Position numbers and translations under genes: made by a program
Shown here: piece after piece, positions 3,662-59,273 of the stretch
How the letters are laid out: each line of letters starts with the position of its first letter
Numbering within the stretch: the first letter of the stretch is position 1
Assembly (NCBI GenBank): GCA_045533775.1
Contig: JAZSIK010000024.1
Location: 5,510-69,509, forward strand
DNA: 64,000 nt
Reading direction: 5' to 3'
Source: Eubacteriales bacterium
GTDB taxonomy: Bacteria > Bacillota > Clostridia > Oscillospirales > CAG-272
Notes under the pieces: generated by a model
Told to the model about the DNA's origin: nothing
Database searches by the model: none
Seen by the model: the letters and a program-made list of their open reading frames with translations, nothing else

Positions 3662-5899
3662 ATGAACAACAAGCATATCATTTTAAGATCCCAGCTCAGC
3701 CTTTTCAAGCCTATTGTAGACAAGTGCTCAATCAGGGTTGTAAGACGGGCTCAGGACGGTATCGGTAAGCTTATGTCTGCCTCCTATAAGGATCAGGTCA
3801 GCTGTAAAAATGTCAAGGTTGGACATCTCAACTGCGCTATGCTTACTCCCAGGGAGGAGCTTAACGGTGGAGTCATTCTGTATCTTCACGGCGGCGGCTA
3901 TGTGGCGGGTAATCTTGATTACGCAAAGGGCTTTGGCAGCGTTCTTGCGGCAAAGTGTGGCATCAAGGTATTTGTGGTTGAGTACAGGCTTGCTCCCGAG
4001 TATCCCTATCCCGCTGCTCTTGATGACGCTATGGATGCGTACGGTTATCTTCTTTCTGACGGATATGAGCCGTCAAGAATTGCCATTTGCGGTGAGAGCG
4101 CCGGAGGCGGACTTTGCTATTCTCTCTGCCAGAAGCTGCGCGATAAGGGAAGGACTATGCCTGCGGGAATTATTGCTATCTCGCCATGGACCGATCTTAC
4201 ACTGAGTAGTGAATCTTACGTTGTAAATAAAGACGAAGATCCTTCTATGTCCCCCGAGCTGCTCAAATACTTTGCGGATTGCTATGTTTATGGTGGACAA
4301 GCCGACTCAAAGGGCAGACTTCATCCGAATATCAATACCGATGCTGAGGACGACCGTGAGCTTAAGAGTGATCGTCATCTTTCTCCCCTTTTTGACAATC
4401 AGGATAAAATGCCTCCGTCGCTTATTTTTGTAGGAGATGACGAGGTGATGTATGACGATTCGGTGCTCCTGCACGAAAAGCTGCTTGATGCCGGTTGCAG
4501 GAGCGAGCTTGTAGTTGCGCCTGATCTTTGGCACGGTTACCTTCTTTATGATCTTCCGGAGAGGGCAGGTGACTTTGATAAAATATCAAAGTTTATTAAG
4601 AGGATCATTCCCGCTCACAGAATGCTTAGCTGGATGTCGCTTGATAACGCCGCCAAGATATTCCCCGCATCAAGGAGCAGAACTTGGAGCAATATGTTCC
4701 GTGTTTCAGCGACTTTTGACGAGGATATTGACAGAGATGTATTGCGTGTAGCTCTTGATGTCACGCTGAGACGCTTTCCTTCTATTGCCGTATCAATTAA
4801 AGAAGGACTTTTCTGGTACTACCTTGAGGAGATTTCCTCCGCGCCCGAGATCCTTGACGAGAAGCCATATCCTCTTGCAAGAATGACTATGCGAGATCTG
4901 AGAAAATGCGCCTTCCGCGTTCTCGTTTATAAAAATCGTTTGGCGGTGGAGTTCTTCCATTCGCTGACCGACGGCAACGGAGGACTTGTTTTTGTAAAAA
5001 CGCTGGCAGCAGAATATCTTTACCAAAAATACGGCCTTAAGGTTCCTGCAGAAAACGGAATATTTGACAGGCTTGAGGAGCCCTCTGCAGCAGAGCTTGA
5101 GGATTCGTTTGTTAAATATGCAGGCAAATACGCCGCCTCGCGTAAAGAGTCCGACTCGTTTTCAATACAAGGGAAACGCGAGGTTGACGGTTTTCGTACC
5201 AATACCACCTTTATTCTTGATCCGGATTTTGTCAGGTCAGAGGCAAGGAAGCGCGGAGTTACCGTGAATATATATCTGACCGCTATTCTTATAGAAGCAT
5301 CAAAGAGCATACAGAATAAGCGTGTGCCCGATCCTGCTCGCCAGAAGGATATCAAGGTTTATATTCCGATAAATCTGCGTAAAATATTTCCCTCGCAGAC
5401 TATGCGTAATTTTATTCTCGGTGTAACCGTAGGAATCAATCCAAAGCAGGGAGATTATTCCTTTGACGATCTTTGCACTATTCTGTCAGCACAAATGAAA
5501 CAGCAGATGACAGAGAAAAATCTCGCCGCTATGATCAAAACTAATGTTCAAAGCGAGCAGAGTATGTTTATACGCGTAGTACCTCTGTTTTTGAAAAATA
5601 TAATTATGAAAGCCATTTTTAATGCTGTGGGTGAGAGAAAAAGCTTGTTCAGCTTCTCTAATCTTGGTATTGTAAATGCACCACCTGAGTTTTTGTCCCA
5701 TGTTAAGCGTATGGACTTTGTTCTCGGTTCGCAGTCAAGCGCGCCCTACAACGTCAGTGCTCTGACGTATAACGGTAATTTGTATCTGAATATTACCCGT
5801 AACTGTAAAGAACCCACCCTTGAGGGCGAAGTATACCGTGTTCTCAGAGAGAGAGGCGTTCCTCACTCCGTGGAGAGCAACACCAGAGGAAAGGAGTAA
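3662..5899 (+). CDS. Fusion protein: alpha/beta-hydrolase (HSL-type esterase/lipase) plus HxxxD acyltransferase (alcohol acetyltransferase / condensation-like) domain
   Basis: N-terminal part has the HGGG oxyanion motif (LHGGGYVAGN) and nucleophile elbow GESAGG. C-terminal part of about 420 aa has HSLTDGNGG (HxxxDG catalytic motif). Confidence 0.75.
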   Translation: MNNKHIILRSQLSLFKPIVDKCSIRVVRRAQDGIGKLMSASYKDQVSCKNVKVGHLNCAMLTPREELNGGVILYLHGGGYVAGNLDYAKGFGSVLAAKCGIKVFVVEYRLAPEYPYPAALDDAMDAYGYLLSDGYEPSRIAICGESAGGGLCYSLCQKLRDKGRTMPAGIIAISPWTDLTLSSESYVVNKDEDPSMSPELLKYFADCYVYGGQADSKGRLHPNINTDAEDDRELKSDRHLSPLFDNQDKMPPSLIFVGDDEVMYDDSVLLHEKLLDAGCRSELVVAPDLWHGYLLYDLPERAGDFDKISKFIKRIIPAHRMLSWMSLDNAAKIFPASRSRTWSNMFRVSATFDEDIDRDVLRVALDVTLRRFPSIAVSIKEGLFWYYLEEISSAPEILDEKPYPLARMTMRDLRKCAFRVLVYKNRLAVEFFHSLTDGNGGLVFVKTLAAEYLYQKYGLKVPAENGIFDRLEEPSAAELEDSFVKYAGKYAASRKESDSFSIQGKREVDGFRTNTTFILDPDFVRSEARKRGVTVNIYLTAILIEASKSIQNKRVPDPARQKDIKVYIPINLRKIFPSQTMRNFILGVTVGINPKQGDYSFDDLCTILSAQMKQQMTEKNLAAMIKTNVQSEQSMFIRVVPLFLKNIIMKAIFNAVGERKSLFSFSNLGIVNAPPEFLSHVKRMDFVLGSQSSAPYNVSALTYNGNLYLNITRNCKEPTLEGEVYRVLRERGVPHSVESNTRGKE

Positions 5900-5903
5900 G
5901 AAT

Positions 5904-6611
5904 ATGTATTGTATCAAATGTGGCGCAAAGCTGTCTGAGGGTCAGACTGTCTGTCCGATTTGCGAAACCAGGGTGTATCACCCCGACTTTGTAATATCAG
6001 AGAAAAACACCTATCCCAAGGTGCCTTTTGAGTCTGAGGAGTTCAATCGCAAGGGCCTTATGTTTATCCTCACGATGATATTCCTTATTCCTCTTATCCT
6101 TCCTGTACTTCTTGAGCTGGGCTGGCGATCTGATGTCAGCTGGTCGGGATATGCATCGGGCGGAACACTGATTTTTTATGTGGCATTCATTATGCCGTAT
6201 TGGTTCAAGAAGCCTAATCCTGTGATTTTTACCCCTGTGACATTCGCACTTATAGTCGGTCTTTTGCTGTTTATTTGTTATGAGACGGGTGGCAATTGGT
6301 TTATGTCCTTTGCCTTCCCGGTGGCGGGGTCGCTTGCCATTATTGTTACTGCAGCCACCGCTTTGCTGCATTATGTAAAGAAAGGTTGTCTTTATACCAT
6401 AGGCGGATTGCTTATTGCTTTGGGACTCTGGACTGTGCTTCTGGAGATTGACATCAGAACAAGCTTTGATGTCCACACCCCATTTTTCTGGTCGCTTGCA
6501 CCTCTTACCGTTTTATCGGTGATCGGCATTATGCTGATCGTAATAGCTATCGTAAAGCCCTTGAAGGAATCGCTCAGACGGATATTCTTCATTGGAAGCT
6601 CAAAAAAATAG
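5904..6611 (+). CDS. Zinc-ribbon domain membrane protein (function unknown)
   Basis: ORF track 5820..6611. ATG 5904 follows GGAAAGGAG. N-terminal CIKCG...CPIC zinc ribbon followed by about 6 hydrophobic segments. Confidence 0.7.
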   Translation: MYCIKCGAKLSEGQTVCPICETRVYHPDFVISEKNTYPKVPFESEEFNRKGLMFILTMIFLIPLILPVLLELGWRSDVSWSGYASGGTLIFYVAFIMPYWFKKPNPVIFTPVTFALIVGLLLFICYETGGNWFMSFAFPVAGSLAIIVTAATALLHYVKKGCLYTIGGLLIALGLWTVLLEIDIRTSFDVHTPFFWSLAPLTVLSVIGIMLIVIAIVKPLKESLRRIFFIGSSKK

Positions 6612-7267: not shown

Positions 7268-9385
7268 ATGGTAGAAAGAATCAAAACATTTGACAACTAC
7301 AAAGAATACCGCTACGAGCTTGCGGGCAGACCCCTTGTAGTTAAGACCGGCAAGGTAGCCGGACTGGCAAACGGTGCAGCTATGGTTCAGTACGGCGAGA
7401 CTACCGTTCTTGCGACCGCAACCGCTTCTGCTGCTCCCAGAGAGGGAATTGATTTCCTTCCTCTTTCGGTTGATTATGATGAGAAGATGTACGCTGTCGG
7501 CAAGATCCCCGGTGGCTTCCTTAAGCGTGAGGGTAAGCCCTCCGAGAAGGCGGTTCTCGCAGGCAGAGTTATTGACCGTCCCGTACGTCCCCTCTTCCCC
7601 AAGGATCTGAGAAATGATATTTCTCTCCTCCTCACCATTATGTCCGTTGACCCCGATTGCTCCCCCGAGATCACCGCTATGATCGGTGCGTCTATCGCTC
7701 TCTCCATTTCCGACATTCCATGGAACGGTCCTATTGCAGGCGTATTTATGGGTCTTGTTGACGGTGAGATCGTTGTTAACCCCACCGCTGCTCAGAGAAA
7801 GGTTTCTGACCTTGAGCTTACCGTTGCTGCTTCCGAGGGCAAGGTAGTTATGATTGAGGCAGGCGCAAAGGAAGTTTCCGATGAGGTTATGTTTGACGCT
7901 ATTATGAAGGCGCACGAGGAGTGCAAGGGTGTTGTTAAGTTCATCAACGAGATCGTAGCAGAGATCGGTAAGCCTAAGTTTACTTATGCATCCGGTGAGC
8001 TTGATCACGATATGTTTGATGAGATCTTCGCTTACTGTGAGGCAGGCGTTATGGAGGCACTTGACACCGATGACAAGAATGTCAGAGATGCTAAGATGCA
8101 GCCCATTATGGACGATATCGTTGCAAACTTTGAAGAAAAGTATCCCGACATTAAGGTAGTTCTCCCTGAGCTTATCTACAAGATTCAGAAGAAGATCGTT
8201 CGTCGCTGGCTTCTTGTTGACAAGAAGAGAGTTGATGGCAGACGTATGGACGAGATCCGTCCTCTTGCATCTGAGGTAGGTCTTATTCCCAGGGTACACG
8301 GCTCGGGTCTTTTCACCAGAGGTCAGACTCAGGTACTTACTATTGCTACTCTTGGTACTCTCTCTGAGGGTCAGAAGCTTGAGGGTCTTGATGACGAGAC
8401 CGGCAAGAGATATATGCACCACTACAACATGCCCGGTTACTCTACCGGTGAGGCAAAGGCTCTTCGTTCTCCCGGCCGTCGCGAGATCGGTCACGGTGCT
8501 CTTGCAGAGCGTTCTCTTGTTCCCGTTCTTCCTTCGGAAGAAGAGTTCCCCTATGCTATCCGTCTTGTATCTGAGGTCGTAAGCTCTAACGGTTCCACAT
8601 CTCAGGGCTCCGTTTGCGGCTCCACCCTTGCACTTATGGATGCAGGTGTTCCGATCAAGGCTCCTGTTGCAGGTATTTCCTGCGGTCTTATCACCGCTGA
8701 GGACGGCTCCTGGGATACTATGATTGATATTCAGGGTCTTGAGGACTTCTACGGCGATATGGACTTCAAGGTAGCAGGTACCAAGAAGGGTATTACCTCC
8801 ATTCAGATGGACCTTAAGGTAGACGGTCTTACTCCCGAGATTATCAAGCAGGCTCTTGAGACTACTCACCAGGGTAGAAACGAGATCATTGACAAGGTTA
8901 TTCTTCCCGCTATTGCCGAGCCCAGAGCAGAGGTATCTGCATATGCTCCCAAGATGATCTCCATGACCATCAATCCCGATAAGATCCGTGAGGTTATCGG
9001 TAAGGGCGGCTCTGTAATTCAGAAGATCGTTGCCGACACCGGCGCAAAGGTTGATATCAACGATGACGGCACCGTATTTATCGCAGCGGTTAACCGCGAG
9101 AGCGCAGATATGGCAAAGGCTATCATTGACGCTATCGTGTTTGAGCCCGAGGTAGGCGAGACCTATGAGGGTACCGTTACCAGAATCATTCCTATTGGCG
9201 CGTTTGTAGAGTTCGCTCCCGGCAAGGAGGGTATGGTTCATATCTCCAAGCTCCAGCAGCAGAGAACCGAGAAGGTTGAGGATGTTGTTGCAGTTGGCGA
9301 TACCGTTCGCGTTAAGTATCTCGGCACCGACGAGAAGGGCAGACAGAACCTTTCTATGCGCGACGCTGCTCCCAAGGCGGAGTAA
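7268..9385 (+). CDS. pnp: Polyribonucleotide nucleotidyltransferase (PNPase)
   Basis: 705 aa; two RNase PH domains, then KH (GKGGSVIQKI) and S1 C-terminal domains. Classic rpsO-pnp synteny. Confidence 0.97.
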   Translation: MVERIKTFDNYKEYRYELAGRPLVVKTGKVAGLANGAAMVQYGETTVLATATASAAPREGIDFLPLSVDYDEKMYAVGKIPGGFLKREGKPSEKAVLAGRVIDRPVRPLFPKDLRNDISLLLTIMSVDPDCSPEITAMIGASIALSISDIPWNGPIAGVFMGLVDGEIVVNPTAAQRKVSDLELTVAASEGKVVMIEAGAKEVSDEVMFDAIMKAHEECKGVVKFINEIVAEIGKPKFTYASGELDHDMFDEIFAYCEAGVMEALDTDDKNVRDAKMQPIMDDIVANFEEKYPDIKVVLPELIYKIQKKIVRRWLLVDKKRVDGRRMDEIRPLASEVGLIPRVHGSGLFTRGQTQVLTIATLGTLSEGQKLEGLDDETGKRYMHHYNMPGYSTGEAKALRSPGRREIGHGALAERSLVPVLPSEEEFPYAIRLVSEVVSSNGSTSQGSVCGSTLALMDAGVPIKAPVAGISCGLITAEDGSWDTMIDIQGLEDFYGDMDFKVAGTKKGITSIQMDLKVDGLTPEIIKQALETTHQGRNEIIDKVILPAIAEPRAEVSAYAPKMISMTINPDKIREVIGKGGSVIQKIVADTGAKVDINDDGTVFIAAVNRESADMAKAIIDAIVFEPEVGETYEGTVTRIIPIGAFVEFAPGKEGMVHISKLQQQRTEKVEDVVAVGDTVRVKYLGTDEKGRQNLSMRDAAPKAE

Positions 9386-9407
9386 TTTTCAGCAAAAATA
9401 AACAGTA

Positions 9408-9440
9408 AAAACGGCAATCGTTAATTCGGTTGCCTTTTTT
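9408..9440 (+). terminator. pnp terminator
   Basis: GGCAATCG-TTAATT-CGGTTGCC hairpin followed by TTTTTT. Confidence 0.6.
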
Positions 9441-9600
9441 ACCGAATTAATCGCGCACGCGCGCGACGAATTTTTGTTACTTTTTGACCAAATTATTAAC
9501 GACTTTTTGTTAAAAAGCACAAAAAAGCTTCTCGCGCATATAATATTAGTATAAAAATATATTAAAAAACATTAAAAAAAACTTTTTTTCTAAAAAAGTA

Positions 9601-9629
9601 TTGACTTATTTGACAAGAAGTAGTATAAT
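9601..9629 (+). promoter_or_regulatory. Promoter of the collagen-like lipoprotein gene
   Basis: TTGACT (9601-9606), 17-nt spacer, TATAAT (9624-9629). Leaves a 5-prime UTR of about 150 nt. Confidence 0.6.
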
Positions 9630-9778
9630 CATTACAAGAAAGTGCATTAGTTTGCTCTTTTGCCAAAAAGCGGTATAAAATCATTCGCCCTACGATTTAA
9701 TACGCTCGTTTGACAGATGGGCAGGCATGTGTTTTCCAAAAAGAAAATGATAATAAATTAATTAAAGGAGAAATTACT

Positions 9779-11293
9779 ATGAACAAGAACATTATTAAAT
9801 TCATTGCAATTTTAGTGATGTGCTTCATGATCTGTGGCGTTCTTGTTGCTTGTGCGGGCGAGACTGGCCCCAAGGGCGATAAGGGCGAGCAGGGCATCCA
9901 GGGCGTTCAGGGCGAGAAGGGTGAAACCGGCGCTCAGGGCGACAAGGGTGACAAGGGTGATAAGGGCGATAAGGGTGATACTGGTGCTGCTGGTGCTGAC
10001 GGCCTTGGTATCGCTACCGCTGTTATCAACGAGAACGGCGAGCTCGTTCTTACATACACCGATGGTACTGTTGTGGTTCTCGGCAGAGTTGAGGGCGTTG
10101 TTTGTGACAACCATGTTTGGAACACAATCAAGGTTGAAGATGTAGATACCAATGGTTGGTATACTCTCAAGGCTTGCACCAAGTGCGGTTGGGCAGAGAT
10201 TGCTTGCGCACACAGAGATTCCTACATCGTATCCACTCCCGCTAACTGCACCACTCCTGCACTTGACTTCACATACTGCAAGAGCTGCGACGAGCTTCTC
10301 GGCAATCCTGTAGAGACCGCTCCCGCTACTGGTCATGCATTCCCTGATTTTGATGCAACCAACGTTTCTGATAAGTGGACTCTTTCCATCAACGACTCCG
10401 ACCTTTGCGATTGCGAGTGGGAGCGTGAGTACACCGCTACTTGTGAGAACGGCTGTGGTGAGATTGACCACAAGGTAGGTCTTGCTACCGGTCACAGCTA
10501 CGAGCACGCTGATTCTGAGTACGGTTGGGAGGACACTATTCCTACTCCCGGTTACAATCCTTGTACTTGGATGCCTGTTCAGGTTCGTGAGTGCGAGTGG
10601 TGTAACCACGATCAGTGCTTCCAGTCTCGTGAGACCGGTGCTGCACTTGGTCACAATTGGGGTCTCTGGTCTGTTGTTACCGCTCCTACTGCTGAGGCAG
10701 AGGGTGAGCTCGTTCGCGTATGTAACAGATGCGGTCTTGAGCACGCTGAGGGTACTGAGTCCATTAAGATTCCTGCTCTTAACACTACTGATTATACTTA
10801 CATTGAGCTTATTGGTGCTACATGTACCACCGAGGGTAAGGCTATTTACACTCACAACGAGACCGGCGTTAAGACCGAGGTAGTTCTTCCCGCATTCGGT
10901 CACTCCGTTGACGATACTTGCGTATACTCCGTAACCAAGCTTCCTACCGCTGAGGCAGAGGGTGCTGTTACTGTTAAGTGCGCAGAGTGTGGCGTAACTC
11001 TTGAGATGGCTCTTCCCGCTCTTGATCCTATGTACATCGGCAAGGTTTACATCATCACCTACGGTAACTGTGTAGATCCTTACGATCACTATGTAATCAC
11101 TCTTACCGATAAGAACGAGCAGATCAACGGTGCAATCGTTGTTGAGTTTGACATCAACGGTGGTTACACTCACGATGAGAAGCCCGCTAAGGATGATTGC
11201 CATAAGGCAGAGGGTCTTGACAAGTACTACTACGTATACAAGTGCGAGAAGTGCGGTAACTGGATCGTTGCTTACTACGAGCCCAAAAACTAA
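9779..11293 (+). CDS. Collagen-like-repeat lipoprotein with repeated Cys-rich modules
   Basis: ORF track 9710..11293. ATG 9779 follows AAAGGAG. Signal peptide with lipobox LVAC (Cys25), then 16-17 uninterrupted G-X-Y triplets (GETGPKGDKGEQ...GDKGDKGDKGDKGDTGAAGADG, about nt 9857-10012). After that come CxxC pairs, several followed by (T/L/F)GH (PATGH, LATGH, AALGH, PAFGH). Confidence 0.8.
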   Translation: MNKNIIKFIAILVMCFMICGVLVACAGETGPKGDKGEQGIQGVQGEKGETGAQGDKGDKGDKGDKGDTGAAGADGLGIATAVINENGELVLTYTDGTVVVLGRVEGVVCDNHVWNTIKVEDVDTNGWYTLKACTKCGWAEIACAHRDSYIVSTPANCTTPALDFTYCKSCDELLGNPVETAPATGHAFPDFDATNVSDKWTLSINDSDLCDCEWEREYTATCENGCGEIDHKVGLATGHSYEHADSEYGWEDTIPTPGYNPCTWMPVQVRECEWCNHDQCFQSRETGAALGHNWGLWSVVTAPTAEAEGELVRVCNRCGLEHAEGTESIKIPALNTTDYTYIELIGATCTTEGKAIYTHNETGVKTEVVLPAFGHSVDDTCVYSVTKLPTAEAEGAVTVKCAECGVTLEMALPALDPMYIGKVYIITYGNCVDPYDHYVITLTDKNEQINGAIVVEFDINGGYTHDEKPAKDDCHKAEGLDKYYYVYKCEKCGNWIVAYYEPKN

Positions 11294-11435
11294 TTAAAAA
11301 AACAAAAACAAACAAGTAATCTTTCTCCATTGATTACTAAATAAAGGCTGGGCGGCTGCCTCGGCAGTCGCCCTTGCCAAAAAAATATGGAGAGCGTTTC
11401 AGGCCTTAGTAATAAGGTAAATTAGAAAGGGGATT

Positions 11436-12500
11436 ATGATGAGAACCGCTAAATATCACGATTATACAGTGTTGAGAATAGTTCTGTTTATCGTTCTGGT
11501 AATTCTCGGACTATTTATTTATCTTAATTTTATTAAGGCGCCTCTTGAACACACTGCGCCCGACAATGCTTGGGTGGTAATTACAGAGCCTACCTGCGAC
11601 AGCGATGGCTCAAAGTGCAGAGTATGTACAGAATGCGGCGAGAAGTTTGATTATAAGACTATACCCGCTACCGGACACACAGCTCTTGCACCCGAAAAGG
11701 AAAACGAAAAAGCTCACACAACTACCAAGGGCGGCTCTTATGAAAGTGTTACATACTGCAGAGACTGCGGTGTGGAGATGAACAGAGAGCAGGTATTCAT
11801 AAACGGTGAGCATACTGTAGAGACTTATACCTACAGAGACAAAGAACTTAAACCCGATTGCACAGAGCACGGTACATACGAGCTTGTTACCGTATGTCTT
11901 GGCTGTGATGAGGAGATCTCACGCGAGGTTAAGGTTATAGATCCCTATGGCCACAACTTTGTTTGGGAGCTTATGTATAATGAATCTGACGGTTCTTATA
12001 CGATGATCGGTGATTGTGATGTATGTGATAAAGACGGCAGTACCGTTACATATACCCAGGCAAACGGCCTTAAGGTAGTTCGTGATACTTCCGTTTCGTC
12101 CTGCTGTCTTATCAGATATACCTGCACAGCGTATGACGATAAGGGCAACCGCGTAAGCCCCAGCTTAAACTATGACTTTAAGGCTGATAAGAACCACACT
12201 ATTACTTATCATCCTGATATGGACTCTCATTTTCCCGATGATCCGATAGTAGCTCTTCTTCCCGATGCTCAGATTGACTGGAGAACCGGCAAGCCTTACT
12301 ATGATATAACTAAGGTTGAAGGCATTGAGGAGCTTACTGACAATGTATACGATGCATACGGCTTCGGCTACGGCGTAATCAAGTGTACAGCTTGTGAGAA
12401 CGCAGAGTGCAGCGAATGTATTGATCAGAATCATCGCTTTGTAGTTAACATCTACAACCCCGAATACAATACATATTTATACCCCGACGTACAGGACTGA
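11436..12500 (+). CDS. Membrane-anchored Cys-rich repeat protein (paralogous modules to the preceding gene)
   Basis: N-terminal TM anchor (VLRIVLFIVLVILGLFIYL), then modules such as EPTCDSDGSKCRVCTECGEKFDYKTIPATGH and KPDCTEHGTYELVTVCLGCDEE...DPYGH. Confidence 0.75.
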   Translation: MMRTAKYHDYTVLRIVLFIVLVILGLFIYLNFIKAPLEHTAPDNAWVVITEPTCDSDGSKCRVCTECGEKFDYKTIPATGHTALAPEKENEKAHTTTKGGSYESVTYCRDCGVEMNREQVFINGEHTVETYTYRDKELKPDCTEHGTYELVTVCLGCDEEISREVKVIDPYGHNFVWELMYNESDGSYTMIGDCDVCDKDGSTVTYTQANGLKVVRDTSVSSCCLIRYTCTAYDDKGNRVSPSLNYDFKADKNHTITYHPDMDSHFPDDPIVALLPDAQIDWRTGKPYYDITKVEGIEELTDNVYDAYGFGYGVIKCTACENAECSECIDQNHRFVVNIYNPEYNTYLYPDVQD

Positions 12501-12564
12501 TAATTCAGTTTCAAACGTCCAACAAATCGCGTTCGCTATGCGAACAAATTGAATTGTCAGCAGA

Positions 12565-12600
12565 AAAACCGCCTGTTAAATAACAGGCGGTTTTCTCTTT
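12565..12600 (+). terminator. Rho-independent terminator
   Basis: AAAACCGCCTGTTA / TAACAGGCGGTTTT perfect stem followed by a T-rich tail. Confidence 0.85.
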
Positions 12601-12661
12601 TAAAAAACTGTGTCTACCTTATATATTTGTAAAGAAAATCAGCGAAAATGCCTTAAATCAC

Positions 12662-12690
12662 TTGCATTTTTGAACAAATAATGCTATAAT
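12662..12690 (+). promoter_or_regulatory. Promoter of aspS
   Basis: TTGCAT (12662-12667), 17-nt spacer, extended -10 TGcTATAAT (12682-12690). Confidence 0.6.
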
Positions 12691-12738
12691 ACTATTGTGG
12701 AAAATTATAAAAATAAATATATATAAAGGAAAAGAAAA

Positions 12739-14031
12739 ATGGAAAGAACCTATATCAAAGACGTTGTTCCCGGCTATCATAGAGTCAGTGGCTTCGTTGA
12801 AAACTTCCGTAATAAAAGAACGATGGCCTTTATCGTTGTAAAGGACATCACCGGCAAGCTCCAGATCACTATTGAGAAGGAAAAGCACCCTGAATTCAGC
12901 GAGATGCTTGATCAGCTTACTATTCACTCGGTAGTAACCTTTGAGGGTGAGGTAGTTGCCAGCGAATACGTAAAGATGGGCGGCAAGGAGATGTATCCTA
13001 CCACTATGAAGATAGAGTCTGTTGCAGATGCTCTTCCTATTAAGGATGACTCTGACATAGATGTTCGTATGGATTACAGATGGATTGACCTCCGCCGTGA
13101 CAAAAATCATCTTATGTATGAGATGCAGACTACTCTTACCAATGCAATGCGCAAGTTCCTTGTTGAACGCAATTTTGTGGAGATTCATACTCCCAAGCTT
13201 ATTGCCGCAGCCAGCGAGTCGGGCTCTGATGTATTTGAGGTTAAGTATTTTGACGGCCTTGCATATCTTGCACAGTCCCCTCAGTTCTACAAGCAGATGG
13301 CTATGGCATCCGGTCTTGAGCGTATTTTTGAGACAGGCCCTGTTTTCAGAGCAGAGAAGTCATATACAAACAAGCACGCTACCGAGTTTACAGGCTTTGA
13401 CCTTGAGTTCTCCTATATTGACTCCTTTGAGGATGTTATGAAGATGGAGGAGGAGCTTCTTGCCTACGCTCTCGCAGAGGTAAAGGAGAAGCACGGCGAT
13501 AAGATCGTTGAGCTCTACGGCCCCGAGTACGAGGTTATTGTTCCCACTCTTCCTTTCTCCAGAATGAAGCTTGCTGATGTTTATGCCGAGCTTGAGAAGA
13601 GATATGGCTATACCGTTCCCGCTGAGCTTCACGGTGACCTTACCACCGAGGCAGAGCGTATGACAAAGCAGCTTTGCCGTGATATGTTCGGTCACGAGTT
13701 GGTCTTTATCTGGGAATATGATGCTAAGGAGAGAGCCTTCTATCATATGAGAGACGAGCAGGGCGTGCCCCAGGGCTATGACCTTATCTGGCGCGGTGTT
13801 GAGATCACCACCGGCGCACAGCGCGAGCATAGATACGATGTTCTTAAGGCGCAGGCGGAGGAGAAGGGACTTGCTGAGGATGTAAAGTTCTATCTTGAGT
13901 TCTTCAAGTACGGTTGTCCCCCCCATGGTGGCTTTGGTCTTGGTATTGACCGTCTGACCATGCTCTTCCTTGGCCTTTCAATTAAAGAGGCTGAGTTCCT
14001 GTTCCGCGGTCCCAACCGTCTTACTCCCTAA
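12739..14031 (+). CDS. aspS: Aspartate--tRNA ligase, archaeal/type-2 (possibly non-discriminating)
   Basis: 430 aa class IIb aaRS with an OB-fold N-terminus; FRAEKSYTNKHATEF (motif 2), FYLEFFKYGCPPHGGFGLGIDRL (motif 3). Confidence 0.88.
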   Translation: MERTYIKDVVPGYHRVSGFVENFRNKRTMAFIVVKDITGKLQITIEKEKHPEFSEMLDQLTIHSVVTFEGEVVASEYVKMGGKEMYPTTMKIESVADALPIKDDSDIDVRMDYRWIDLRRDKNHLMYEMQTTLTNAMRKFLVERNFVEIHTPKLIAAASESGSDVFEVKYFDGLAYLAQSPQFYKQMAMASGLERIFETGPVFRAEKSYTNKHATEFTGFDLEFSYIDSFEDVMKMEEELLAYALAEVKEKHGDKIVELYGPEYEVIVPTLPFSRMKLADVYAELEKRYGYTVPAELHGDLTTEAERMTKQLCRDMFGHELVFIWEYDAKERAFYHMRDEQGVPQGYDLIWRGVEITTGAQREHRYDVLKAQAEEKGLAEDVKFYLEFFKYGCPPHGGFGLGIDRLTMLFLGLSIKEAEFLFRGPNRLTP

Positions 14032-25976: not shown

Positions 25977-26005
25977 TTGACAAACAGATAAATATATAGT
26001 ATAAT
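25977..26005 (+). promoter_or_regulatory. Promoter of rplJL
   Basis: TTGACA (25977-25982), 17-nt spacer, TATAAT (26000-26005). Confidence 0.65.
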
Positions 26006-26009
26006 AACT

Positions 26010-26150
26010 AAGTCCGAAGACAGCAGGTTCCGGTAAAAGCAAAAGCTTTCCTGCCGAGGTAAGTAAACTTTAATATCTTGTATTAAGTTGTCCTTTTCTC
26101 GGGGGTGGTCTGCGCCTTATCGGAAAAGGATATTTTTTATTGATTTTTTA
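26010..26150 (+). promoter_or_regulatory. Ribosomal protein L10 leader (autoregulatory 5-prime UTR)
   Basis: About 150-nt structured-looking UTR ending in a hairpin (CTTTTCTCGGGGGTGG...CGGAAAAGG) plus TTTTTT immediately upstream of rplJ. Position matches the known Firmicute L10 leader; not verified by covariance search. Confidence 0.5.
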
Positions 26151-26163
26151 TGGAGGTGAAACA

Positions 26164-26712
26164 ATGCCAAGTAATAAGATTCTTGAAGAGAAGAAGCAAG
26201 TTGTTGAAGCACTTGCCGCTAAGCTCCAGTCCGCTGCAGCAGGCGTTCTCGTGAAGTATGAAGGCATTACAGTGGCTGATGATACCGCTCTTCGTGCGGC
26301 TCTTCGTAAGGCTGGTGTAGAATACACCGTTATGAAGAACACTCTCACCGGTCGTGCTTGCGACATCGCAGGTTACGGTGAAATGAAGCAGCACCTTAAC
26401 GGTATGACCGCTATCGCAATCAGCCAGGACGACCCCATCGCTCCCGCTAAGATCATGAAGCAGTATGCTGATAAGATCAGCACCTTTGAGATCAAGGCTG
26501 GTTTCGTTGACGGTGGCATTCTTGATCAGGCAGGCGTTATTGAGCTCGCTGAGACTCCCTCTAAGGAAGTTCTCATTGGCCGTATGATGGGCAGCCTTCA
26601 GTCGTCCCTTTACAGCTTTGCATACGTACTTCAGGCAATTATTGACAAAGATGGCGAGGCAGCTCCCGCTGAGGATGCAGCTCCCGCTGAAGAGGCTCCC
26701 GCAGAGGCTTAA
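26164..26712 (+). CDS. rplJ: 50S ribosomal protein L10
   Basis: ORF track 26140..26712; ATG 26164 follows GGAGGTG. Typical L10 sequence with an extra Ala/Pro/Glu C-terminal tail. Confidence 0.95.
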   Translation: MPSNKILEEKKQVVEALAAKLQSAAAGVLVKYEGITVADDTALRAALRKAGVEYTVMKNTLTGRACDIAGYGEMKQHLNGMTAIAISQDDPIAPAKIMKQYADKISTFEIKAGFVDGGILDQAGVIELAETPSKEVLIGRMMGSLQSSLYSFAYVLQAIIDKDGEAAPAEDAAPAEEAPAEA

Positions 26713-26766
26713 TTCCTGCGGAAATTAACACAGTTAAACATTTCTTAAATAACGGAGGATTTTAAA

Positions 26767-27138
26767 ATGAACGAAAAGTCTACTCAGATCCTTGAAATCG
26801 TAAAGGGTCTTACCATTCTTGAACTCGCTGACCTTGTAAAGGCACTTGAGGAGGAGTTCGGCGTATCCGCAGCTCCCGTAGCAGTAGCAGCAGCTCCCGG
26901 CGCAGCAGCAGCTCCCGTTGAGGAGAAGACCGAGTTTGACGTTGTACTTAAGGCAGCAGGCGCTTCCAAGCTCAACGTTATCAAGGTTGTTCGTGAGCTT
27001 ACCGGTCTTGGCCTTAAGGACGCTAAGGATCTCGTTGAGGCAGCTCCTAAGACCATTAAGGAAGGCATCGCTAAGGACGAGGCAGAGAAGATCGCTGAGC
27101 AGCTTAAGGCAGCAGGCGCAGAGGTTGAGGTTAAGTAA
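26767..27138 (+). CDS. rplL: 50S ribosomal protein L7/L12
   Basis: 123 aa; Ala-rich hinge and [20 protein letters not shown]-terminal domain. Confidence 0.97.
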
Positions 27139-27157
27139 TTTCATCTTCATAGAAAAA

Positions 27158-27190
27158 ATAGGTGACCACCTGCTGGTCGCCTATTTTTTT
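27158..27190 (+). terminator. rplL terminator
   Basis: ATAGGTGACCA-CCTGC-TGGTCGCCTAT hairpin followed by TTTTTTT. Confidence 0.85.
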
Positions 27191-28737
27191 ATTTTACTTT
27201 GTTTGGGTGTATTATTTGTATAATGAAACAGTAAAAAAACACTTGATATTTGATAGTAAAAACTACCATTTTTAAGGCAAAAAACGTACCGTGATGTTTA
27301 TTTTATTATATTTTTCAAGGATTTTTGACCGTTTATGACATATTTTGATAAAAATGATATATTAGTAAATTATGCTTGTTAAGGGATAGACACTTCGTAT
27401 CAGAACAAACAATGAAAGTCGGTTGATGAATCTTTTTTAACAAAGCATCAGACGTTTGCTTAAAAAAACTTTTATCCTTTAATTAAAATAACAACTTAAT
27501 AATATAACAATAATAAAGTTTTCTTATATTATTTTTGTATTATTAATATAGAGAAGTTTATGACGGAGCTAATAAGTATAATTGAATAGACTCGCGGTGA
27601 GTAAATGCTTATACTAATAAATCTTGTACCTGATCTGGTTAAGTCTATCCTGAACTTGTTTTTTTCTCGGGGTGAAAAAAAGTCTTTCTTTTGTCATCGC
27701 CGATTCTTTATACAAGATAAAAGAATATTACTTCTTAATAGAATTAAAAAATGATAGTAGATTATACTCGTTTAATTTGTGCCATCTCATGTGTCATCTC
27801 ATTAATGAAAATTGATCATAATAGCAAGAGAATTATTCTAATAAAAAAACATTTTTATATCATCAAAGTGTTGCGCTTTTATGCACTAAAATATAGGGCA
27901 AATTATTGTAATTTTATATTGGAAAAATATAAGTTAGATATTCAGAAAAATCTGTATAAAAAACATCCGAAAATAATTTACTCTCTTAATTAGTAGTTTG
28001 TAAAAACAAGTAAAAAACTACATCAAAAAAGTTGTATTTATATATCAAAAAAACAGTCCTGTTTTCAAATCTTTCTGTCTGGAAATATTCCCTTACGAAG
28101 ATAATGAGAGCCTGACTGTGTTATTCCTTTTCGGCTTCTTTATTTGATTTGCCATCAATAAGGGTAAAAAAGAGGGGAAATAGCCAAAAACCTAAACAAT
28201 TGTTTACGATAAAAAGTTTTGAAAAGTTCATAATAATCTGCAAAAACTTTGAAATTAATAGAAAAATACTAAAAAAAACGAAAAAAGTTTGAAAAAATCC
28301 GAAAAGTTCGGTCAAAAATCAGAATCAAAGCTCTCTTTTTGAAAATGAACGGATTATTTATTCTTGTTTTTATCTCTTTTTGATCAAAATGTTCTTTTTT
28401 TGGTTTTTTTCTGTTTTTCACCCTTTAACGCTACCATTTTGAGCCCTAAAACACCTTGAATCATCTAAAAAATCAAGTCTTTTTGCCTGTATTTGTTCTG
28501 CAAATCACTCCATTATTTTTTGTTGCTAAGTATAATTATCTCGGTTGTAGTATCTGTTGCTACTTTGTTTTTAATCTTAATTTTTTTGATCTGTTTTTTC
28601 CTTCACTTTGGTGCATTTTCAGATGTTTTCCTCGGTGCTTTTTTCGTTATTCTACAGACTTTTTTTCCTTCTTTGTATGCTATTTTGGTATGCTTTTTTA
28701 TTCATTTTTTTGAGTTATTGTTTTCTTATCTTTCAAT
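27191..28737. other. 1.55-kb AT-rich region with no credible ORF, between convergent terminators
   Basis: Only four short low-complexity ORFs (60-123 aa, Phe/Leu/Ile/Lys-rich, no RBS). Composition contrasts sharply with the flanking genes. The plus strand is A-rich up to about 28330 and T-rich from 28330 to 28737. Confidence 0.6.
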
Positions 28738-28770
28738 AAAAAAATCGGGTGATTTTACACCCGATTTTTT
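28738..28770. terminator. Bidirectional terminator (serves glyA)
   Basis: AAAAAAATCGGGTG-loop-CACCCGATTTTTT, with A- and T-tracts on both sides. Confidence 0.85.
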
Positions 28771-28778
28771 ATGCTTTT

Positions 28779-30023
28779 TTACTCGTAAAGAGGGTACTTT
28801 CTGCAGAGGGCATTTACCCTTGCTTTTGCCTCCTCGGCATTTCCTTCAAAGTCGGAAAGTGTGAGAGAAATAATCCTTGCCACCTCTCTCATATCATCCT
28901 CGCCAAAGCCTCTGGTCGTTACAGCCGCCGTACCAAGACGAAGTCCGCTTGTAACGAAGGGCTTCTGTGTGTCAAAGGGAATGGCATTCTTGTTACAGGT
29001 AATTCCAACCTCGTCAAGCATATGCTCAGCCTCTTTACCTGTATCAACCTTCATTCCTGTAAGGTCAAGGAGCAGTAAATGGTTATCCGTTCCGCCCGAA
29101 ACCAGCTTAAAGCCCTCTTTTTCAAGCTCCGAGGCAAGCACGCTGCAGTTTTTTACTACATTTTTGGCATATTCCTTGAAGCTTGGCTTAAGTGCCTCAC
29201 CAAAGCATACCGCCTTTGCCGCGATAGTATGCATCAGAGGACCTCCCTGCGTGCCGGGGAATATGGATTTATCAATTTTCTTTGCAATTTCCTCGTCATT
29301 TGAGAGAATAAGACCGCCTCTCGGACCGCGCAGAGTTTTATGAGTGGTTGTTGTGGTTACGTGAGCGTAGGGAACAGGCGAGGGATGAGCTCCCGCGGCT
29401 ACAAGCCCCGCAATATGAGCCATATCAACCATCAGATATGCGCCAACCTCGTCTGCGATCTCGCGGAATCGCTTGAAATCAATGATTCTGGGGTATGCGG
29501 AGGCTCCTGCCAGGATCAACTTAGGCTTGGACTCAAGGGCAAGCCGTCTAACCTCGTCATAATCTATCACTCCGCCCTCGCGTGTTACACCGTAGGGCAC
29601 AATATTCCAGTATTTTCCCGAAATATTTACAGGCGAACCGTGGCTCAGATGTCCGCCGTGGGCAAGATTCATAGACAAAACGGTATCTCCCGTCTCAAGC
29701 AGAGCGAAAAATACAGCCATATTTGCCTGTGCGCCCGAGTGAGGCTGCACATTGGCATATCCTGCGCCAAAAAGCTCCTTGGCGCGCTCAATAGCTATGC
29801 TTTCAACCGTATCAACGTGCTCGCATCCACCGTAATATCTCCTGCCGGGATAGCCCTCAGCGTATTTGTTTGTCAGCGTTGTTCCGTTAGCCTCCATCAC
29901 AACCTCGGATACAAAGTTCTCGGAGGCAATCAGCTCTATTTTATTCCTCTGTCTGTTTGTTTCGCTTGTAATTGCTTCATAGAGACGAGGATCGTTTTCC
30001 TTAATAAGATTGTACTCTCTCAT
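28779..30023 (-). CDS. glyA: Serine hydroxymethyltransferase
   Basis: 414 aa; PLP-lysine motif [14 protein letters not shown]. Confidence 0.97.
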
Positions 30024-34319: not shown

Positions 34320-34346
34320 ACGCGAAAATACTTCATCCTGATAACA

Positions 34347-34402
34347 GGGCGGATCCAAAAACGAGCCGCCCTATTTACTTTTTTGCGTGGGTGTGGTATA
34401 AT
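34347..34402 (+). promoter_or_regulatory. Cassette junction module 3 (type-2 hairpin plus promoter)
   Basis: GGGCGGATC-caaaaac-GAGCCGCCC hairpin, TTTACT (34374-34379), 17-nt spacer with GGGTGTGG, TATAAT (34397-34402). Confidence 0.7.
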
Positions 34403-34436
34403 TAATATAATCTATCAGTTCAGGGGGATTCATTTT

Positions 34437-58367: not shown

Positions 58368-58394
58368 CCCTTTTAAGTATTTATATTATAGTAA

Positions 58395-59272: not shown

Positions 59273-59273
59273 G

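Follow-up and report, generated by a model that had tools for sequence, protein, structure and literature searches.

Predicted stalk-like surface proteins built from a widespread Cys/His repeat, encoded by a conserved gene pair of gut Clostridia

The closest described relatives of the proteins reported here are two domains of the Thomasclavelia ramosa IgA protease, ZBD1 and ZBD2 (CTD2 and CTD4), which are the only described instance of the repeat and were published in 2025 (PMC12237041, PMC12415215). Each subdomain is a three-stranded sheet free of disulfides, and putative Cys/His zinc sites lie where subdomains meet. These sites come from models and are described as "pending experimental validation"; the domains are elongated, measuring about 110 A per three subdomains (PMC12237041). 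By SAXS, CTD2 is a fully extended rod, interpreted by its authors as a periscope or spacer (PMC12415215); the rods are dispensable for catalysis, so that the spacer role is itself putative.

We analysed a window of 64,000 nucleotides, the whole stretch to which all positions refer, from an uncultured ruminant-gut Clostridia bacterium. All features described lie on the + strand. Gene 1 (9779..11293; ATG at 9779, stop at 11291-11293) encodes a collagen-like lipoprotein of 504 aa with predicted Cys/His rod modules, and gene 2 (11436..12500; alternative start at 11439) encodes a signal-anchored paralogue of 354 aa. A preliminary description of this DNA had placed two ORFs at 9779-12500; we find both, together with all the peptides it quoted from gene 1 and the modules it quoted from gene 2. 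It had also taken both products to be extracytoplasmic and anchored, which the lipobox of gene 1 and the signal-anchor helix of gene 2, with positive charges on its N-terminal side, bear out. It saw the likeness of the two proteins and left paralogy itself unstated; by comparison of the two families with hhalign (96.6% probability, E 5.6e-10, 201 columns) the products are paralogues. The pair is flanked by pnp and a class II aaRS gene, its neighbours are housekeeping genes, and the order rpsO-pnp-gene 1-gene 2-aaRS-rpiB is kept in at least 12 related gut lineages. About 39 orthologues of gene 2 were found. The NCBI name for a gene 1 orthologue is just "collagen-like protein".

Both proteins carry diverged copies of a module of about 39 residues with the consensus H-x12-C-x3-G-x5-C-x2-C-x12-(G)H. 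Neither Pfam nor NCBIfam holds a model for this 39-residue Cys3-His repeat, which occurs in up to 72,500 protein clusters, reaches 92 copies in a single protein and is among the commonest uncatalogued repeats of the protein library. An HMM built on 46 modules from unrelated proteins scored 54 bits on gene 1 and 40 bits on gene 2. A profile of 26 modules, one of them from gene 2 (profile A3), matched PDB 9qa6_A three times with E 5e-9, at chain residues 859-883, 939-978 and 1103-1137; the gene 2 family profile alone reached only E 0.028. Judged by these profile matches, the module is homologous to ZBD1 and ZBD2 of the T. ramosa IgA protease. The preliminary description had called the module architecture unusual and its function unassignable. 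That view no longer holds, as the repeat is very common and has a published relative in the IgA protease, whose rod domains allow a rigid spacer or stalk function to be proposed. What is uncommon here is the fusion of lipobox, collagen segment and rod, plus the conserved gene pair, and nothing else.

The two proteins share with the IgA protease (IgAse/ThomasA, 9QA6 construct) the same repeat by profile, three-stranded sheets of ~35-40 residues, putative Cys/His tetrads between consecutive sheets, an extracellular location in a Gram-positive anaerobe and an elongated rod, which is inferred for the present pair. The IgA protease has 2-3 modules per domain, mostly His2Cys2, in the C-terminal part of an LPXTG-type (SPQTG) sortase-anchored enzyme, whereas the proteins of genes 1 and 2 have 4-8 modules, mostly Cys3His, an N-terminal lipid or TM anchor and no enzyme domain. 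A collagen stalk occurs in gene 1 alone, and zinc is putative in both systems.

Conservation across 5,344 module copies points to the residues that would hold a metal. C1 is conserved in 93%, the Gly in 98%, C2 in 100%, C3 in 96% and the boundary His in 80% of copies. C1 is Cys in 97-98% of modules that have a CxxC one period downstream, against 66-81% of those that do not; it is independent of the preceding module (OR 1.13, p 0.39), though the p-values overstate independence because the statistics are drawn from related repeats. A smaller independent module set gave an OR of 13.7 for C1 and the following CxxC. Where C1 is replaced, the substitutes are E/N/D/H if a module follows and A/T/V if none does. 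The ligand set appears to be Cys3-His, split over two consecutive modules, and we infer a zinc site to which module n contributes C1, module n+1 its CxxC and the n/n+1 boundary a His. Zinc cannot be the sole stabiliser, since some modules are without the full ligand set.

Disulfides are the usual stabiliser of small extracellular modules, and both proteins are extracytoplasmic and Cys-rich, so that the modules might be disulfide-knotted, EGF-like units holding no metal. We consider this quite unlikely. The canonical module has three Cys, an odd number, and one invariant His; the ligand positions vary among Cys, His, Glu, Asp and Asn, a pattern that fits metal ligands and does not fit disulfides; and the hosts are strict-anaerobe gut Clostridia. 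The IgA protease, moreover, showed no disulfides, and its monodispersity was better with reducing agents (PMC12237041). The ligand statistics agree with the earlier remark that the Cys modules resemble metal-binding modules, at sites that are putative, but they do not form a classical zinc ribbon, as the label "zinc-ribbon-like" might imply: every Pfam model for zinc ribbons scores below threshold. The classical zinc ribbon and the C2H2 finger were both rejected as candidates: Zn_ribbon_NUD reached 16.2 bits against 24.8, and C2H2 matches comprised the knuckle and linker only, the module profile cross-matching the TGEKPYKCxECGK linker-knuckle over just 15-19 residues. As in zinc ribbons and C2H2 fingers, a CxxC(G) knuckle sits on a beta-hairpin. 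Unlike C2H2 fingers, the repeat has a period of 39 rather than 28 residues, no helix, putative ligands split across neighbours and an extracellular location.

The gene 1 product begins MNKNIIKFIAILVMCFMICGVLVAC, followed by AG. Its signal peptide (residues 1-25; 9779..9853) was read from the sequence and joins the n-region MNKNIIK, the h-region FIAILVMCFMICGV and the lipobox L-V-A-C at residues 22-25, the pattern used being [LVI][ASTVI][GAS]C preceded by an n-region of positive charge and then a hydrophobic h-region. All 11 orthologues keep M1-K7 and V21-V23/C25 unchanged. The product would be exported and lipid-anchored at Cys25, which would be the first residue of the mature protein. The collagen-like segment comes next (residues 27-77; 9857..10009) and consists of 17 G-X-Y triplets, rich in K/D/E and without interruption, four of them GDK in succession; Pfam Collagen (PF01391) matches residues 27-75 with 35.5 bits against a gathering threshold of 27.2, in line with the 16-17 triplets and four GDK of the preliminary description. 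Among orthologues the longest unbroken run varies from 4 to 27 triplets (total up to 31), as expected of a spacer, and one RNA-derived contig carries a strain variant with a different length of collagen segment. Directly after this segment lies a three-stranded motif, GIATAVINENGELVLTYTDGTVVVLGRV (residues 78-104; 10010..10090), with strands at 78-83, 88-93 and 98-103 in the AlphaFold2 model. Motifs of this type alternate with collagen segments in P0024. The motif is a candidate registration or trimerisation element; a trimerisation domain as such was not identified in gene 1.

The G-X-Y stalk is charged, strain-variable and unbroken like those of other bacterial collagen-like proteins (Scl1/Scl2, Lcl, BclA, Pasteuria Pcl), from which gene 1 differs by having no V-domain, LPXTG or C1q-like head. 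To our knowledge, no protein has been described in which a lipid anchor immediately precedes a collagen segment that leads in turn into Cys/His rods. Identity with the named adhesins Scl1/SclA, Scl2/SclB or Lcl was rejected, the NCBIfam equivalog models scoring 35-38 bits against cut-offs of 325-500 and matching the G-X-Y run only. Collagen-like proteins of Bacillota are often found on the spore surface, and the preliminary description had suggested a spore or exosporium role. A spore-surface appendage resembling BclA or the collagen-tipped endospore appendages would accord with a weak match to BclA (1wck, E 0.0045) that is confined to the G-X-Y region, but the lipoprotein signal and the signal-anchor TM helix of gene 2 indicate Sec export over the cytoplasmic membrane, the promoter is of near-consensus sigma-70 type and the neighbours are housekeeping genes, all of which make such a role very unlikely. 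The C1q/TNF-like head of BclA was not found in gene 1. As an identity for gene 1, a BclA-type exosporium glycoprotein was rejected on the extent of the 1wck match and the presence of the lipoprotein signal.

Tail-fibre families in PHROG match gene 1 from residue 26 to about 111, covering the collagen segment and extending in some cases right through the beta motif GIATAVINENGELVLTYTDGTVVVLGRV. Descent from phage tail-fibre genes, with the pair as their remnant, is nevertheless extremely improbable: the PHROG matches end where the Cys-rich part starts, a tblastn search of 50,697 phage genomes found neither Cys-rich part, the pair keeps its place between pnp and the aaRS gene in at least 12 lineages, no phage genes were found among the neighbours and the lipobox is conserved. 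The earlier remark that no phage genes are visible is upheld, and by the phage tblastn search, the extent of the PHROG matches and the housekeeping synteny the locus is not a prophage.

Gene 1 contains 28 Cys (5.6%), six CxxC and GH pairs at 185/186, 238/239, 291/292 and 374/375. Beyond the lipobox, 20 Cys and 6 His are kept without exception in 11 orthologues whose identity is only 35-70%; this invariance among diverged sequences, together with the scores of an HMM made from unrelated modules, argues that the Cys/His pattern is non-random. About eight modules occupy residues 109-416 (10103..11026), as delimited by ligand conservation and by the module HMM, which matches at 147-186, 292-323, 346-375 and 383-415. 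The putative zinc tetrads are C109/H112/C133/C136, C143/H145/C167/C170, C157/H186/C222/C226, C210 or C212/H239/C272/C275, C262/H292/C315/C318 and C349/H375/C401/C404, and the module ligand residues are invariant or near-invariant in the 11 orthologues. The junction at residue 335 has lost an entire site, with C1, the boundary His and the following CxxC all missing. The AlphaFold2 model of gene 1 is weak (pLDDT 64) and displays the three-strand module pattern at lower confidence. The C-terminal region (residues 417-504; 11027..11290), in which C431, H465, C489 and C492 are invariant in the 11 orthologues, ends in a CxxC beta-hairpin, YKCEKCGNWIVAYYE. The same terminal motif closes some gene 2 orthologues (FKCARCGNWVAVLVYSPEYD in P0059).

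The gene 2 product starts with a predicted cytoplasmic tail, M(M)RTAKYHDY, and a TM helix (11436..11534; helix residues 10-33 in the AlphaFold2 model). In 37 sequences R3, Y7 and D9 of the tail are invariant and K6, H8 and Y10 nearly so. The starts of orthologues match the second ATG (11439), and the protein is therefore perhaps 353 aa long. It contains 18 Cys, and its AlphaFold2 model (mean pLDDT 87.1) has a three-stranded antiparallel up-and-down sheet per unit of ~35-45 residues. Three full modules (residues 39-173; 11550..11954) were located by the module HMM (40.3 bits, residues 45-81) and by predicted strands at 46-50/58-63/70-76, 87-92/101-108/114-121 and 130-138/146-154/160-168. A fourth module (residues 174-210) and the C-terminal domain, with CxxC-x4-CxxC at 317-328, complete the protein (residues 174-354; 11955..12497), the block-mean pLDDT being mostly 84-96 here, with two blocks at ~78-79 and the last few residues low. 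Zinc would be bound at H39/C64/C67 (three ligands named), C54/H81/C108/C111, H94/H126/C154/C157 and C142/H173/C194/C197; in orthologues C142 is His in many, and H94 gives way to a Cys two residues later. The gene 2 C-terminal domain has no Foldseek match in the PDB at E<=0.001, and the C-terminal domains of both proteins match no known fold. Orthologue lengths group at about 345, 385-395 and 425-431 aa, in steps of about one module.

The best explanation as a whole, which we regard as somewhat more probable than its negation, is that both proteins are rigid wall-spanning stalks displaying their C-terminal parts and that the two genes form one transcription unit. The 17 triplets of gene 1 would form a homotrimeric collagen-like helix of ~15 nm, from which each of the three chains would extend as a rod made up of some eight small modules, every one a three-stranded beta-sheet. 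The gene 2 product would be held in the membrane by its N-terminal signal-anchor helix and carry four modules and a C-terminal domain of ~140 residues. Structural Zn2+ ions probably staple neighbouring modules into a stiff rod of the same kind as ZBD1/ZBD2 (CTD2/CTD4). At ~3.7 nm per module the rods would measure ~30 nm in gene 1 and ~15 nm in gene 2, lengths that suffice to cross a Gram-positive wall, so that the C-terminal parts would reach the surface and there probably bind a partner, in adhesion or one another.

Such stalks would have counterparts in form. Periscope proteins and rigid stalks (SasG/Aap G5-E, Rib, SHIRT) likewise string small beta modules in tandem, with no large hydrophobic core, differ among homologues by whole repeats, as the gene 2 family does, and are presumed to project past the wall. 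Their fold is unrelated, and they have C-terminal sortase anchoring, whereas here the anchor is N-terminal in the membrane, no LPXTG was found and stiffness would come from putative inter-module metal sites. Zinc serves dimerisation in Aap, while the sites in genes 1 and 2 would be intramolecular. A collagen helix that gathers three chains and releases them as three separate distal arms, as proposed for gene 1, recalls the "bouquet" of collectins and C1q, an analogy of form in bacterial proteins that share no homology with them and would bear rods in place of globular lectin or gC1q heads.

The same sites could instead make up a surface zinc reservoir, buffer or sensor rather than a stiffened stalk, which we hold to be unlikely. 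Their predicted density is high (~6-7 sites in each chain of gene 1, 4-5 in each of gene 2), and the conserved leader RNA described below could be a metal-responsive element; but full Cys/His tetrads are typical of structural, non-exchanging metal sites, no zinc-uptake or Zur-type genes were found near the pair, and the leader has no recognisable expression platform. The module is also fused to enzymes and anchors (cohesin, SLH, CHAP, M23, PG-binding, subtilase), which a spacer fits better. For the IgA protease it has been speculated that zinc may regulate domain function (PMC12415215), a point in favour of the zinc store.

Conservation is unusually high in the promoter, the leader and the intergenic hairpin region, none of which matches an Rfam family. 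A promoter-like TTGACT-17 nt-TATAAT (9601..9629) agrees with the consensus at 11/12 positions and has an A/T-rich tract upstream; the block, including its spacer, is conserved in 14 orthologous loci and predicts a transcription start at ~9636. The resulting 5' leader (9636..9778) of ~143 nt, estimated earlier at about 150 nt, comprises a conserved stem, an A-rich linker and the RBS AAAGGAGAAA. The stem pairs 9638-9647 (GAAAGUGCAU) with 9727-9736 (AUGUGUUUUC) and extends inward around an invariant UCGCCC (9685-9690); RNAalifold gave 26 pairs, 7 with compensatory changes. A covariance model of the leader (R1) finds exactly one copy per locus and none elsewhere in the window, and detects a locus left out of model building (L014) at 102 bits. 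Searched against Rfam, the leader had no match at E<=1. The preliminary description did not mention how strongly the promoter, leader and intergenic RNA are conserved.

Three hairpins lie between the genes, where the fold z-score is -4.3. Hairpin A, GUAAUC-UUUCUCCAUU-GAUUAC (11316..11337), is kept in 13/15 loci examined, and its loop UCUCCA is complementary to UGGAGA at 11388-11393. It is divergent in L013, with the loop motif gone, and absent from L020; both loci are without the loop motif and without UGGAGA. Hairpin B (11350..11373), the GC hairpin lacking a T-tract of the preliminary description, has a stem of 10-11 bp followed by an A-tract, with no U-tract. All 10 of its pairs are kept in 13/13 sequences, with double compensatory changes at two positions. 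UGGAGA and the small variable hairpin C (11404-11417) together occupy 11388..11417, just 5' of the gene 2 RBS. An intrinsic terminator (12565..12604; 13-bp stem and T-tract) marks the end of the putative two-gene unit.

The leaders of S-layer genes provide stabilising 5' stem-loops for abundant surface-protein mRNAs. The gene 1 leader is like them in its strong promoter, its strong RBS, its length and a stem starting ~3 nt after the predicted 5' end; unlike them, it is conserved in both sequence and structure, with the invariant internal UCGCCC and no Rfam family, and this conservation suggests a specific ligand or partner. The sigma-70-type promoter, the position of the leader stem and the stable U-tract-free hairpin after gene 1 fit a stable, abundant mRNA from which the product of gene 1 would outnumber that of gene 2. 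Both genes are covered by contigs from metatranscriptomic libraries, which can contain DNA; these RNA-derived contigs span 9718-11303 and 11439-12099 with 95-99% identity. Word depth for gene 1 against gene 2 was 5.6 against 2.3 (X3) and 14.9 against 4.9 (X9), depth being a poor measure of RNA level.

A bolder reading, which we put forward as doubtful, is that the paralogues form one zinc-dependent wall-spanning envelope structure whose stoichiometry is set by two undescribed structured RNAs. The trimeric collagen-stalked lipoprotein, with its three rod arms, would dock via its C-terminal CxxC hairpin onto the TM-anchored rod. The 5' leader and the intercistronic hairpin module would set synthesis and a stoichiometry of roughly 3:1, and at least one of the RNA elements would sense a signal, e.g. 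metal availability. If this reading is true, the locus would encode a new kind of Gram-positive surface organelle and a new riboregulator.

Listing of open reading frames and translation located two neighbouring forward-strand genes, gene 1 (9779-11293, 504 amino acids) and gene 2 (11436-12500, 354 amino acids), with the lipobox and collagen run that the preliminary description had read from the sequence. Gene 1 starts with a lipoprotein-type signal, MNKNIIKFIAILVMCFMICGVLVAC, that carries the lipobox LVAC, and its residues 27-77 form 17 G-X-Y triplets without interruption, four of them GDK; the Pfam Collagen model scores 35.5 bits, against a cut-off of 27.2. The remainder of the protein holds 25 cysteines, six CxxC pairs and four GH dipeptides, the last where they had been quoted before. 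Gene 2 had been described as a protein with an N-terminal transmembrane segment and similar modules, and this was borne out: a short basic N-terminal tail leads into one transmembrane helix, followed by 18 cysteines in modules of the gene 1 type. Two membrane-anchored stalks are the best-supported reading of the pair; proteins of the spore surface are less consistent with the evidence.

Both genes belong to small conserved families and are paralogues. The non-collagen part of gene 1 retrieved approximately 11 full-length orthologues (35-70% identity), and gene 2 approximately 39. A profile-profile comparison matched the two families over 201 columns (96.6% probability, E 5.6e-10). In the gene 1 alignment 20 cysteines and six histidines 3' of the lipobox are invariant, and the number of cysteines after the lipobox is constant at 24-27; the longest unbroken G-X-Y run ranges from 4 to 27 triplets, with a total of up to 31. 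The gene 2 family retains an almost invariant cytoplasmic tail, MR(T/S)xKYHDY, and varies in length in steps of about 40 residues through the insertion of whole modules. The C-terminal motif of gene 1, (K)C-x-x-C-G-N-W, also closes some gene 2 orthologues. One gene 2 relative, P0057 (587 amino acids, 35 cysteines, 11 CxxC), matched only half of the query and may be a duplicated or fused form. Two consecutive ATG codons stand at 11436-11441; the start in orthologues corresponds to the latter of them (MRT...), so 11439 may be the true start of gene 2.

The collagen region varies between strains in both length and sequence: in the interval 9860-9998, 137 nt of the repeat that encodes it give way to another sequence of 128 nt in RNA-derived contigs of two metatranscriptomes. 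The motif GI(x)SA(x)IN(x)(x)GELVITYSDGT, for which Pfam has no model, directly follows the collagen run of gene 1. The same motif occurs in eight copies in P0024, a protein of 742 amino acids, where these copies alternate with collagen segments and LRR_5 repeats stand at the end; it seems to recur alongside collagen cassettes in both bacteria and phages.

The cysteine module is of more importance than the gene pair in which it was noticed. The weaker matches to gene 1 were large proteins whose tandem module copies are far more regular than its own, fused to cohesin, SLH, CHAP, M23, peptidoglycan-binding, choline-binding or LRR domains. A hidden Markov model of 46 units of 38-43 residues, taken from these matches, recognized gene 2 at residues 45-81 (40 bits) and gene 1 at 292-323 (30 bits), 147-186, 346-375 and 383-415, with degenerate traces elsewhere. 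Pfam-A and NCBIfam contain no model for the unit, and proteins with 19-26 copies matched nothing in either collection, or borderline zf-CHY only.

A 26-sequence module profile compared with 1.84 billion representative proteins matched 72,500 at E<=1e-3, 41,372 at E<=1e-10 and 13,063 at E<=1e-30, counts that are upper bounds because the profile also matches the TGEKPYKCxECGK of eukaryotic C2H2 fingers. Against the PDB this linker-knuckle match reached E values as low as 5e-16 on multi-finger proteins. The likeness is a convergent zinc-knuckle motif, which inflates counts for the module family and could cause mis-annotation. The best 150 module proteins are clearly a bacterial repeat: they contain 5,344 copies, which repeat every 37-42 residues, and in 118 of the proteins the N-terminus carries a signal-like segment. 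The consensus of the copies is H-x-[YW]-x4-V-x-T-A-[PA]-T-C(93%)-T-E-x-G(98%)-x5-C(100%)-x-x-C(96%)-G-x6-I-P-A-L-G-H, and the top proteins extend to 7,583 amino acids and 92 copies. A homologue search with a 41-residue module profile yielded no architectures, only reading frames of 43-76 amino acids with one or two modules (P0079-P0115), which are probably fragments of repeat proteins produced by assembly breaks or frameshifts rather than real small proteins. Tens of thousands of protein clusters, most of them giant surface proteins, contain the 39-residue Cys3-His repeat, which no curated family covers, and its bearers now carry labels such as "hypothetical" or, as for this pair, just "collagen-like".

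One described protein contains the module. The 26-sequence profile matched the Thomasclavelia ramosa IgA protease (PDB 9qa6_A; chain to UniProt offset 29) in three places with E 5e-9: the end of the preceding open beta-sandwich domain, subdomain III of the putative zinc-binding domain ZBD1 and subdomain III of ZBD2. These two domains are chains of three-stranded antiparallel sheets, without disulfides, in which three subdomains span about 110 A (PMC12237041). CTD2, the other name of ZBD1, is a fully extended rod by SAXS, and the C-terminal domains have been proposed to project the protease away from the cell (PMC12415215). The module and these domains have in common a sequence profile and a three-stranded unit, and the match gives the module a name and a proposed role, from a single protein and with a putative metal only. 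It is already known, since 2025 only, from one protein and without a curated family. A module held together by disulfides is less consistent with the evidence than one that binds zinc.

The predicted topology of the sheet suggests where zinc would be bound. If a module is an up-and-down three-stranded sheet, its first cysteine (C1), situated in the first turn, shares an end of the sheet with the last residue of the module, and the CxxC of the second turn is placed at the end from which the module starts. The expected site therefore combines C1 of module n, the histidine at the boundary and the CxxC of module n+1. Among 143 non-redundant modules from non-orthologous matches, C1 is a cysteine far more often if the boundary histidine and the next CxxC follow (odds ratio 13.7, p 6e-7, a p-value inflated, like the others here, because repeats within one protein are not independent). 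Among 5,325 modules from the 150 large proteins, C1 is a cysteine in 95.3% with a CxxC one period later vs 66.8% without (odds ratio 10.2). A control for direction gave 98.3% and 96.8% with a following module vs 65.8% and 80.9% without one, and no dependence of C1 on the preceding module was seen (odds ratio 1.13, p 0.39). Where C1 is replaced, the substitutes are mostly E, N, D and H if a module follows and mostly A, T and V if none does.

The ends and gaps of the arrays were inspected in the same terms. A C-x(1,2)-H or H-x-H cap lies upstream of the first CxxC in approximately one fifth of first-in-array modules; gene 1 has C109-x2-H112 and C143-x-H145 of the former type. At the gene 1 junction near residue 335 all three elements of a site are absent together, with PTAEAEG in place of ATC.., IPALNT in place of IPALGH and YTHNETG in place of CxxCG. 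Among gene 2 orthologues C142 exchanges with histidine and H94 with a cysteine two residues later. In modules that lack C1 an additional histidine just after the CxxC, which would complete a His2Cys2 site, was not significantly enriched (p 0.16), and such compensation was dropped as a general rule; H322 of gene 1 may still be an instance of it. The sharing of ligands by module n and module n+1 is a new rule, derived here from sequence; it is directly testable and would tell modellers where to position metals. Zinc storage, as a function for these cysteines, is less consistent with the data than a role in stalks.

The predicted structure of gene 2 (37 sequences, mean pLDDT 87.1) has a helix at residues 10-33, then four three-stranded units in succession; in the C-terminal domain block-mean pLDDT is mostly 84-96. 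The gene 1 model (11 sequences) has a pLDDT of 64; its collagen segment is unmodelled, which is to be expected when one chain is predicted alone. Searches of PDB sequences with the Cys-rich part found no neighbour, and Foldseek searches of the PDB with whole-chain models returned noise only (for example, beta-propellers at TM 0.05-0.12); extended multi-module models are poor queries, so the C-terminal domains obtained no fold match there. Against viral models the sole confident matches (probability 1.0) were one SLH and one LRR protein from uncultured-virus contigs, which probably have the predicted rod in common with the query; neither is part of a virion.

The locus is chromosomal and surrounded by housekeeping genes. 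At every locus recovered from ENA and NCBI assemblies and GTDB representative genomes the order is rpsO - pnp - gene 1 - gene 2 - class II aaRS - rpiB, with PAP2, nrdR, yicC, remA, priA, def and fmt beyond, and the window has the same neighbours. A prophage remnant, which the collagen cassette might suggest because PHROG tail-fibre families match gene 1, is less consistent with these observations: those matches stop by residue 111 and span only the cassette and a short beta motif, and tblastn of the Cys-rich parts against 50,697 phage genomes gave no match. Together with the housekeeping synteny, these results largely rule that reading out. The named records are metagenome-assembled genomes ("Clostridia bacterium", "Eubacteriales bacterium", "uncultured Ruminococcus sp.") from sheep and yak rectum and other gut samples, and the runs containing the sequence are gut, faecal and bovine-gut metagenomes. 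The 64-kb window holds no other module-bearing genes and no tRNA genes. A zinc-ribbon and DUF6320 membrane protein (5820-6611), adjoining an alpha/beta hydrolase, keeps its position upstream of rpsO-pnp across related loci. Throughout the window a single Rfam family exceeds its threshold, the ribosomal protein L10 leader (RF00557, 25996-26147, 59.9 bits), and G+C falls to 0.37-0.41 at 26000-30000, 34000-36000 and 58000-62000, vs approximately 0.47 elsewhere.

Predicted expression signals bracket a two-gene unit: a pnp terminator at 9413-9434, a forward-strand promoter TTGACT-17-TATAAT at 9601-9629 and a terminator after gene 2 at 12565-12594. The promoter predicts a leader of about 143 nt, close to the 150 nt estimated earlier. 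Contigs from four gut metatranscriptomic libraries (95-99% identity) span 9718-11303 and 11439-12099, and in the two runs holding both genes word depth was 5.6 vs 2.3 and 14.9 vs 4.9 for gene 1 and gene 2; this is weak evidence of expression, since contig depth measures it poorly and some DNA may have been carried over. A minus-strand promoter-like site, TAAACA-18-TATAAT (10/12), at 11461-11490 inside the first codons of gene 2 would drive RNA over the gene 2 ribosome-binding site and hairpin B (11350-11373); it may be a coincidence, because its -10 box overlaps the conserved H-D-Y codons. Two candidates for a Zur/Fur-type operator found by eye, at the -10 region (TAATCATTAC) and at hairpin A (GTAATC...GATTAC), were rejected for wrong spacing and lack of conservation in the orthologous loci L001 and L013.

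Non-coding DNA around the genes is about as conserved as the coding DNA, and more so in most loci. Among loci whose proteins are 28-76% identical, nucleotide identity is 60-84% for the promoter and leader, 53-79% for the intergenic region and 54-79% for coding DNA, and it is mainly in invariant blocks that the non-coding regions are conserved. Such blocks recur across 15 loci in the promoter with its spacer and in the 143-nt leader (9601-9778). RNAalifold pairs GAAAGUGCAU (9638-9647) with AUGUGUUUUC (9727-9736) in a stem that extends inward; its 26 pairs, with compensatory changes in seven, surround an invariant UCGCCCAA. A covariance model found exactly one copy per locus, including one locus outside model building, and no second copy in the 64-kb window. 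The leader may be a new cis-regulatory or mRNA-stabilizing RNA.

The intergenic region (11294-11435) is a composite of hairpin A, hairpin B, an A-tract, UGGAGA and a small variable hairpin before the gene 2 ribosome-binding site. Hairpin A (11316-11337) is GUAAUC-UUUCUCCAAU-GAUUAC with the loop UCUCC, to which the invariant UGGAGA is complementary; the two loci without the loop motif also lack UGGAGA. Hairpin B, noticed earlier as a GC hairpin without a T-tract, is real and is followed by the A-tract; all ten pairs are retained in 13 of 13 sequences, with double changes at two pairs. It was rejected as an intrinsic terminator because no U-tract follows it on the forward strand, and a leader peptide after UGGAGA was rejected because no start codon or frame is conserved across loci. 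The 3' arm of hairpin B, GUCGCCC, repeats a leader UCGCCC, and UUGCCAAAAA is present in both regions. The sole Rfam match at E<=1 in 9300-12800 was to a snoRNA, below threshold and on the opposite strand, and a metagenome scan for hairpin A found one new locus only. The 5' stem and hairpin B would shield the gene 1 message from decay at its 5' and 3' ends, and would also reduce read-through to, or translation of, gene 2. The invariance of the RNA sequence hints at a specific trans-acting partner or ligand.

Dimensions can be predicted for the pair as two membrane-anchored stalks. The gene 1 product would be a lipid-anchored trimer whose collagen helix, with the textbook rise of 0.286 nm per residue over 51 residues, would be about 15 nm long. 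Beyond the helix its three chains would part into rods of about eight modules, each rod roughly 30 nm long, a length based on the 3.7 nm per module reported for ZBD1. For gene 2 the product would be one rod, about 15 nm long and globular at its end. Such lengths fit proteins that carry their C-terminal parts across a thick wall and past it; adhesion, or docking of the two paralogues onto each other, are the obvious candidates for the role of those parts.

What is new here is the fusion of the module to a lipobox and collagen stalk, the conserved operon of paralogues and the RNA elements that accompany it, in the leader and intergenic regions, which have no Rfam family. With four to eight modules and a collagen trimerizer, the pair is a compact and experimentally tractable example. 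The larger point is the size of an uncatalogued repeat family and the sharing of ligands between neighbouring modules. If each junction is indeed stapled by zinc, anaerobes would make extracellular rods that depend on metal, an alternative to stalks stabilized by disulfides, isopeptide bonds or calcium, and the surface architecture of gut Clostridia would be linked to zinc supply.
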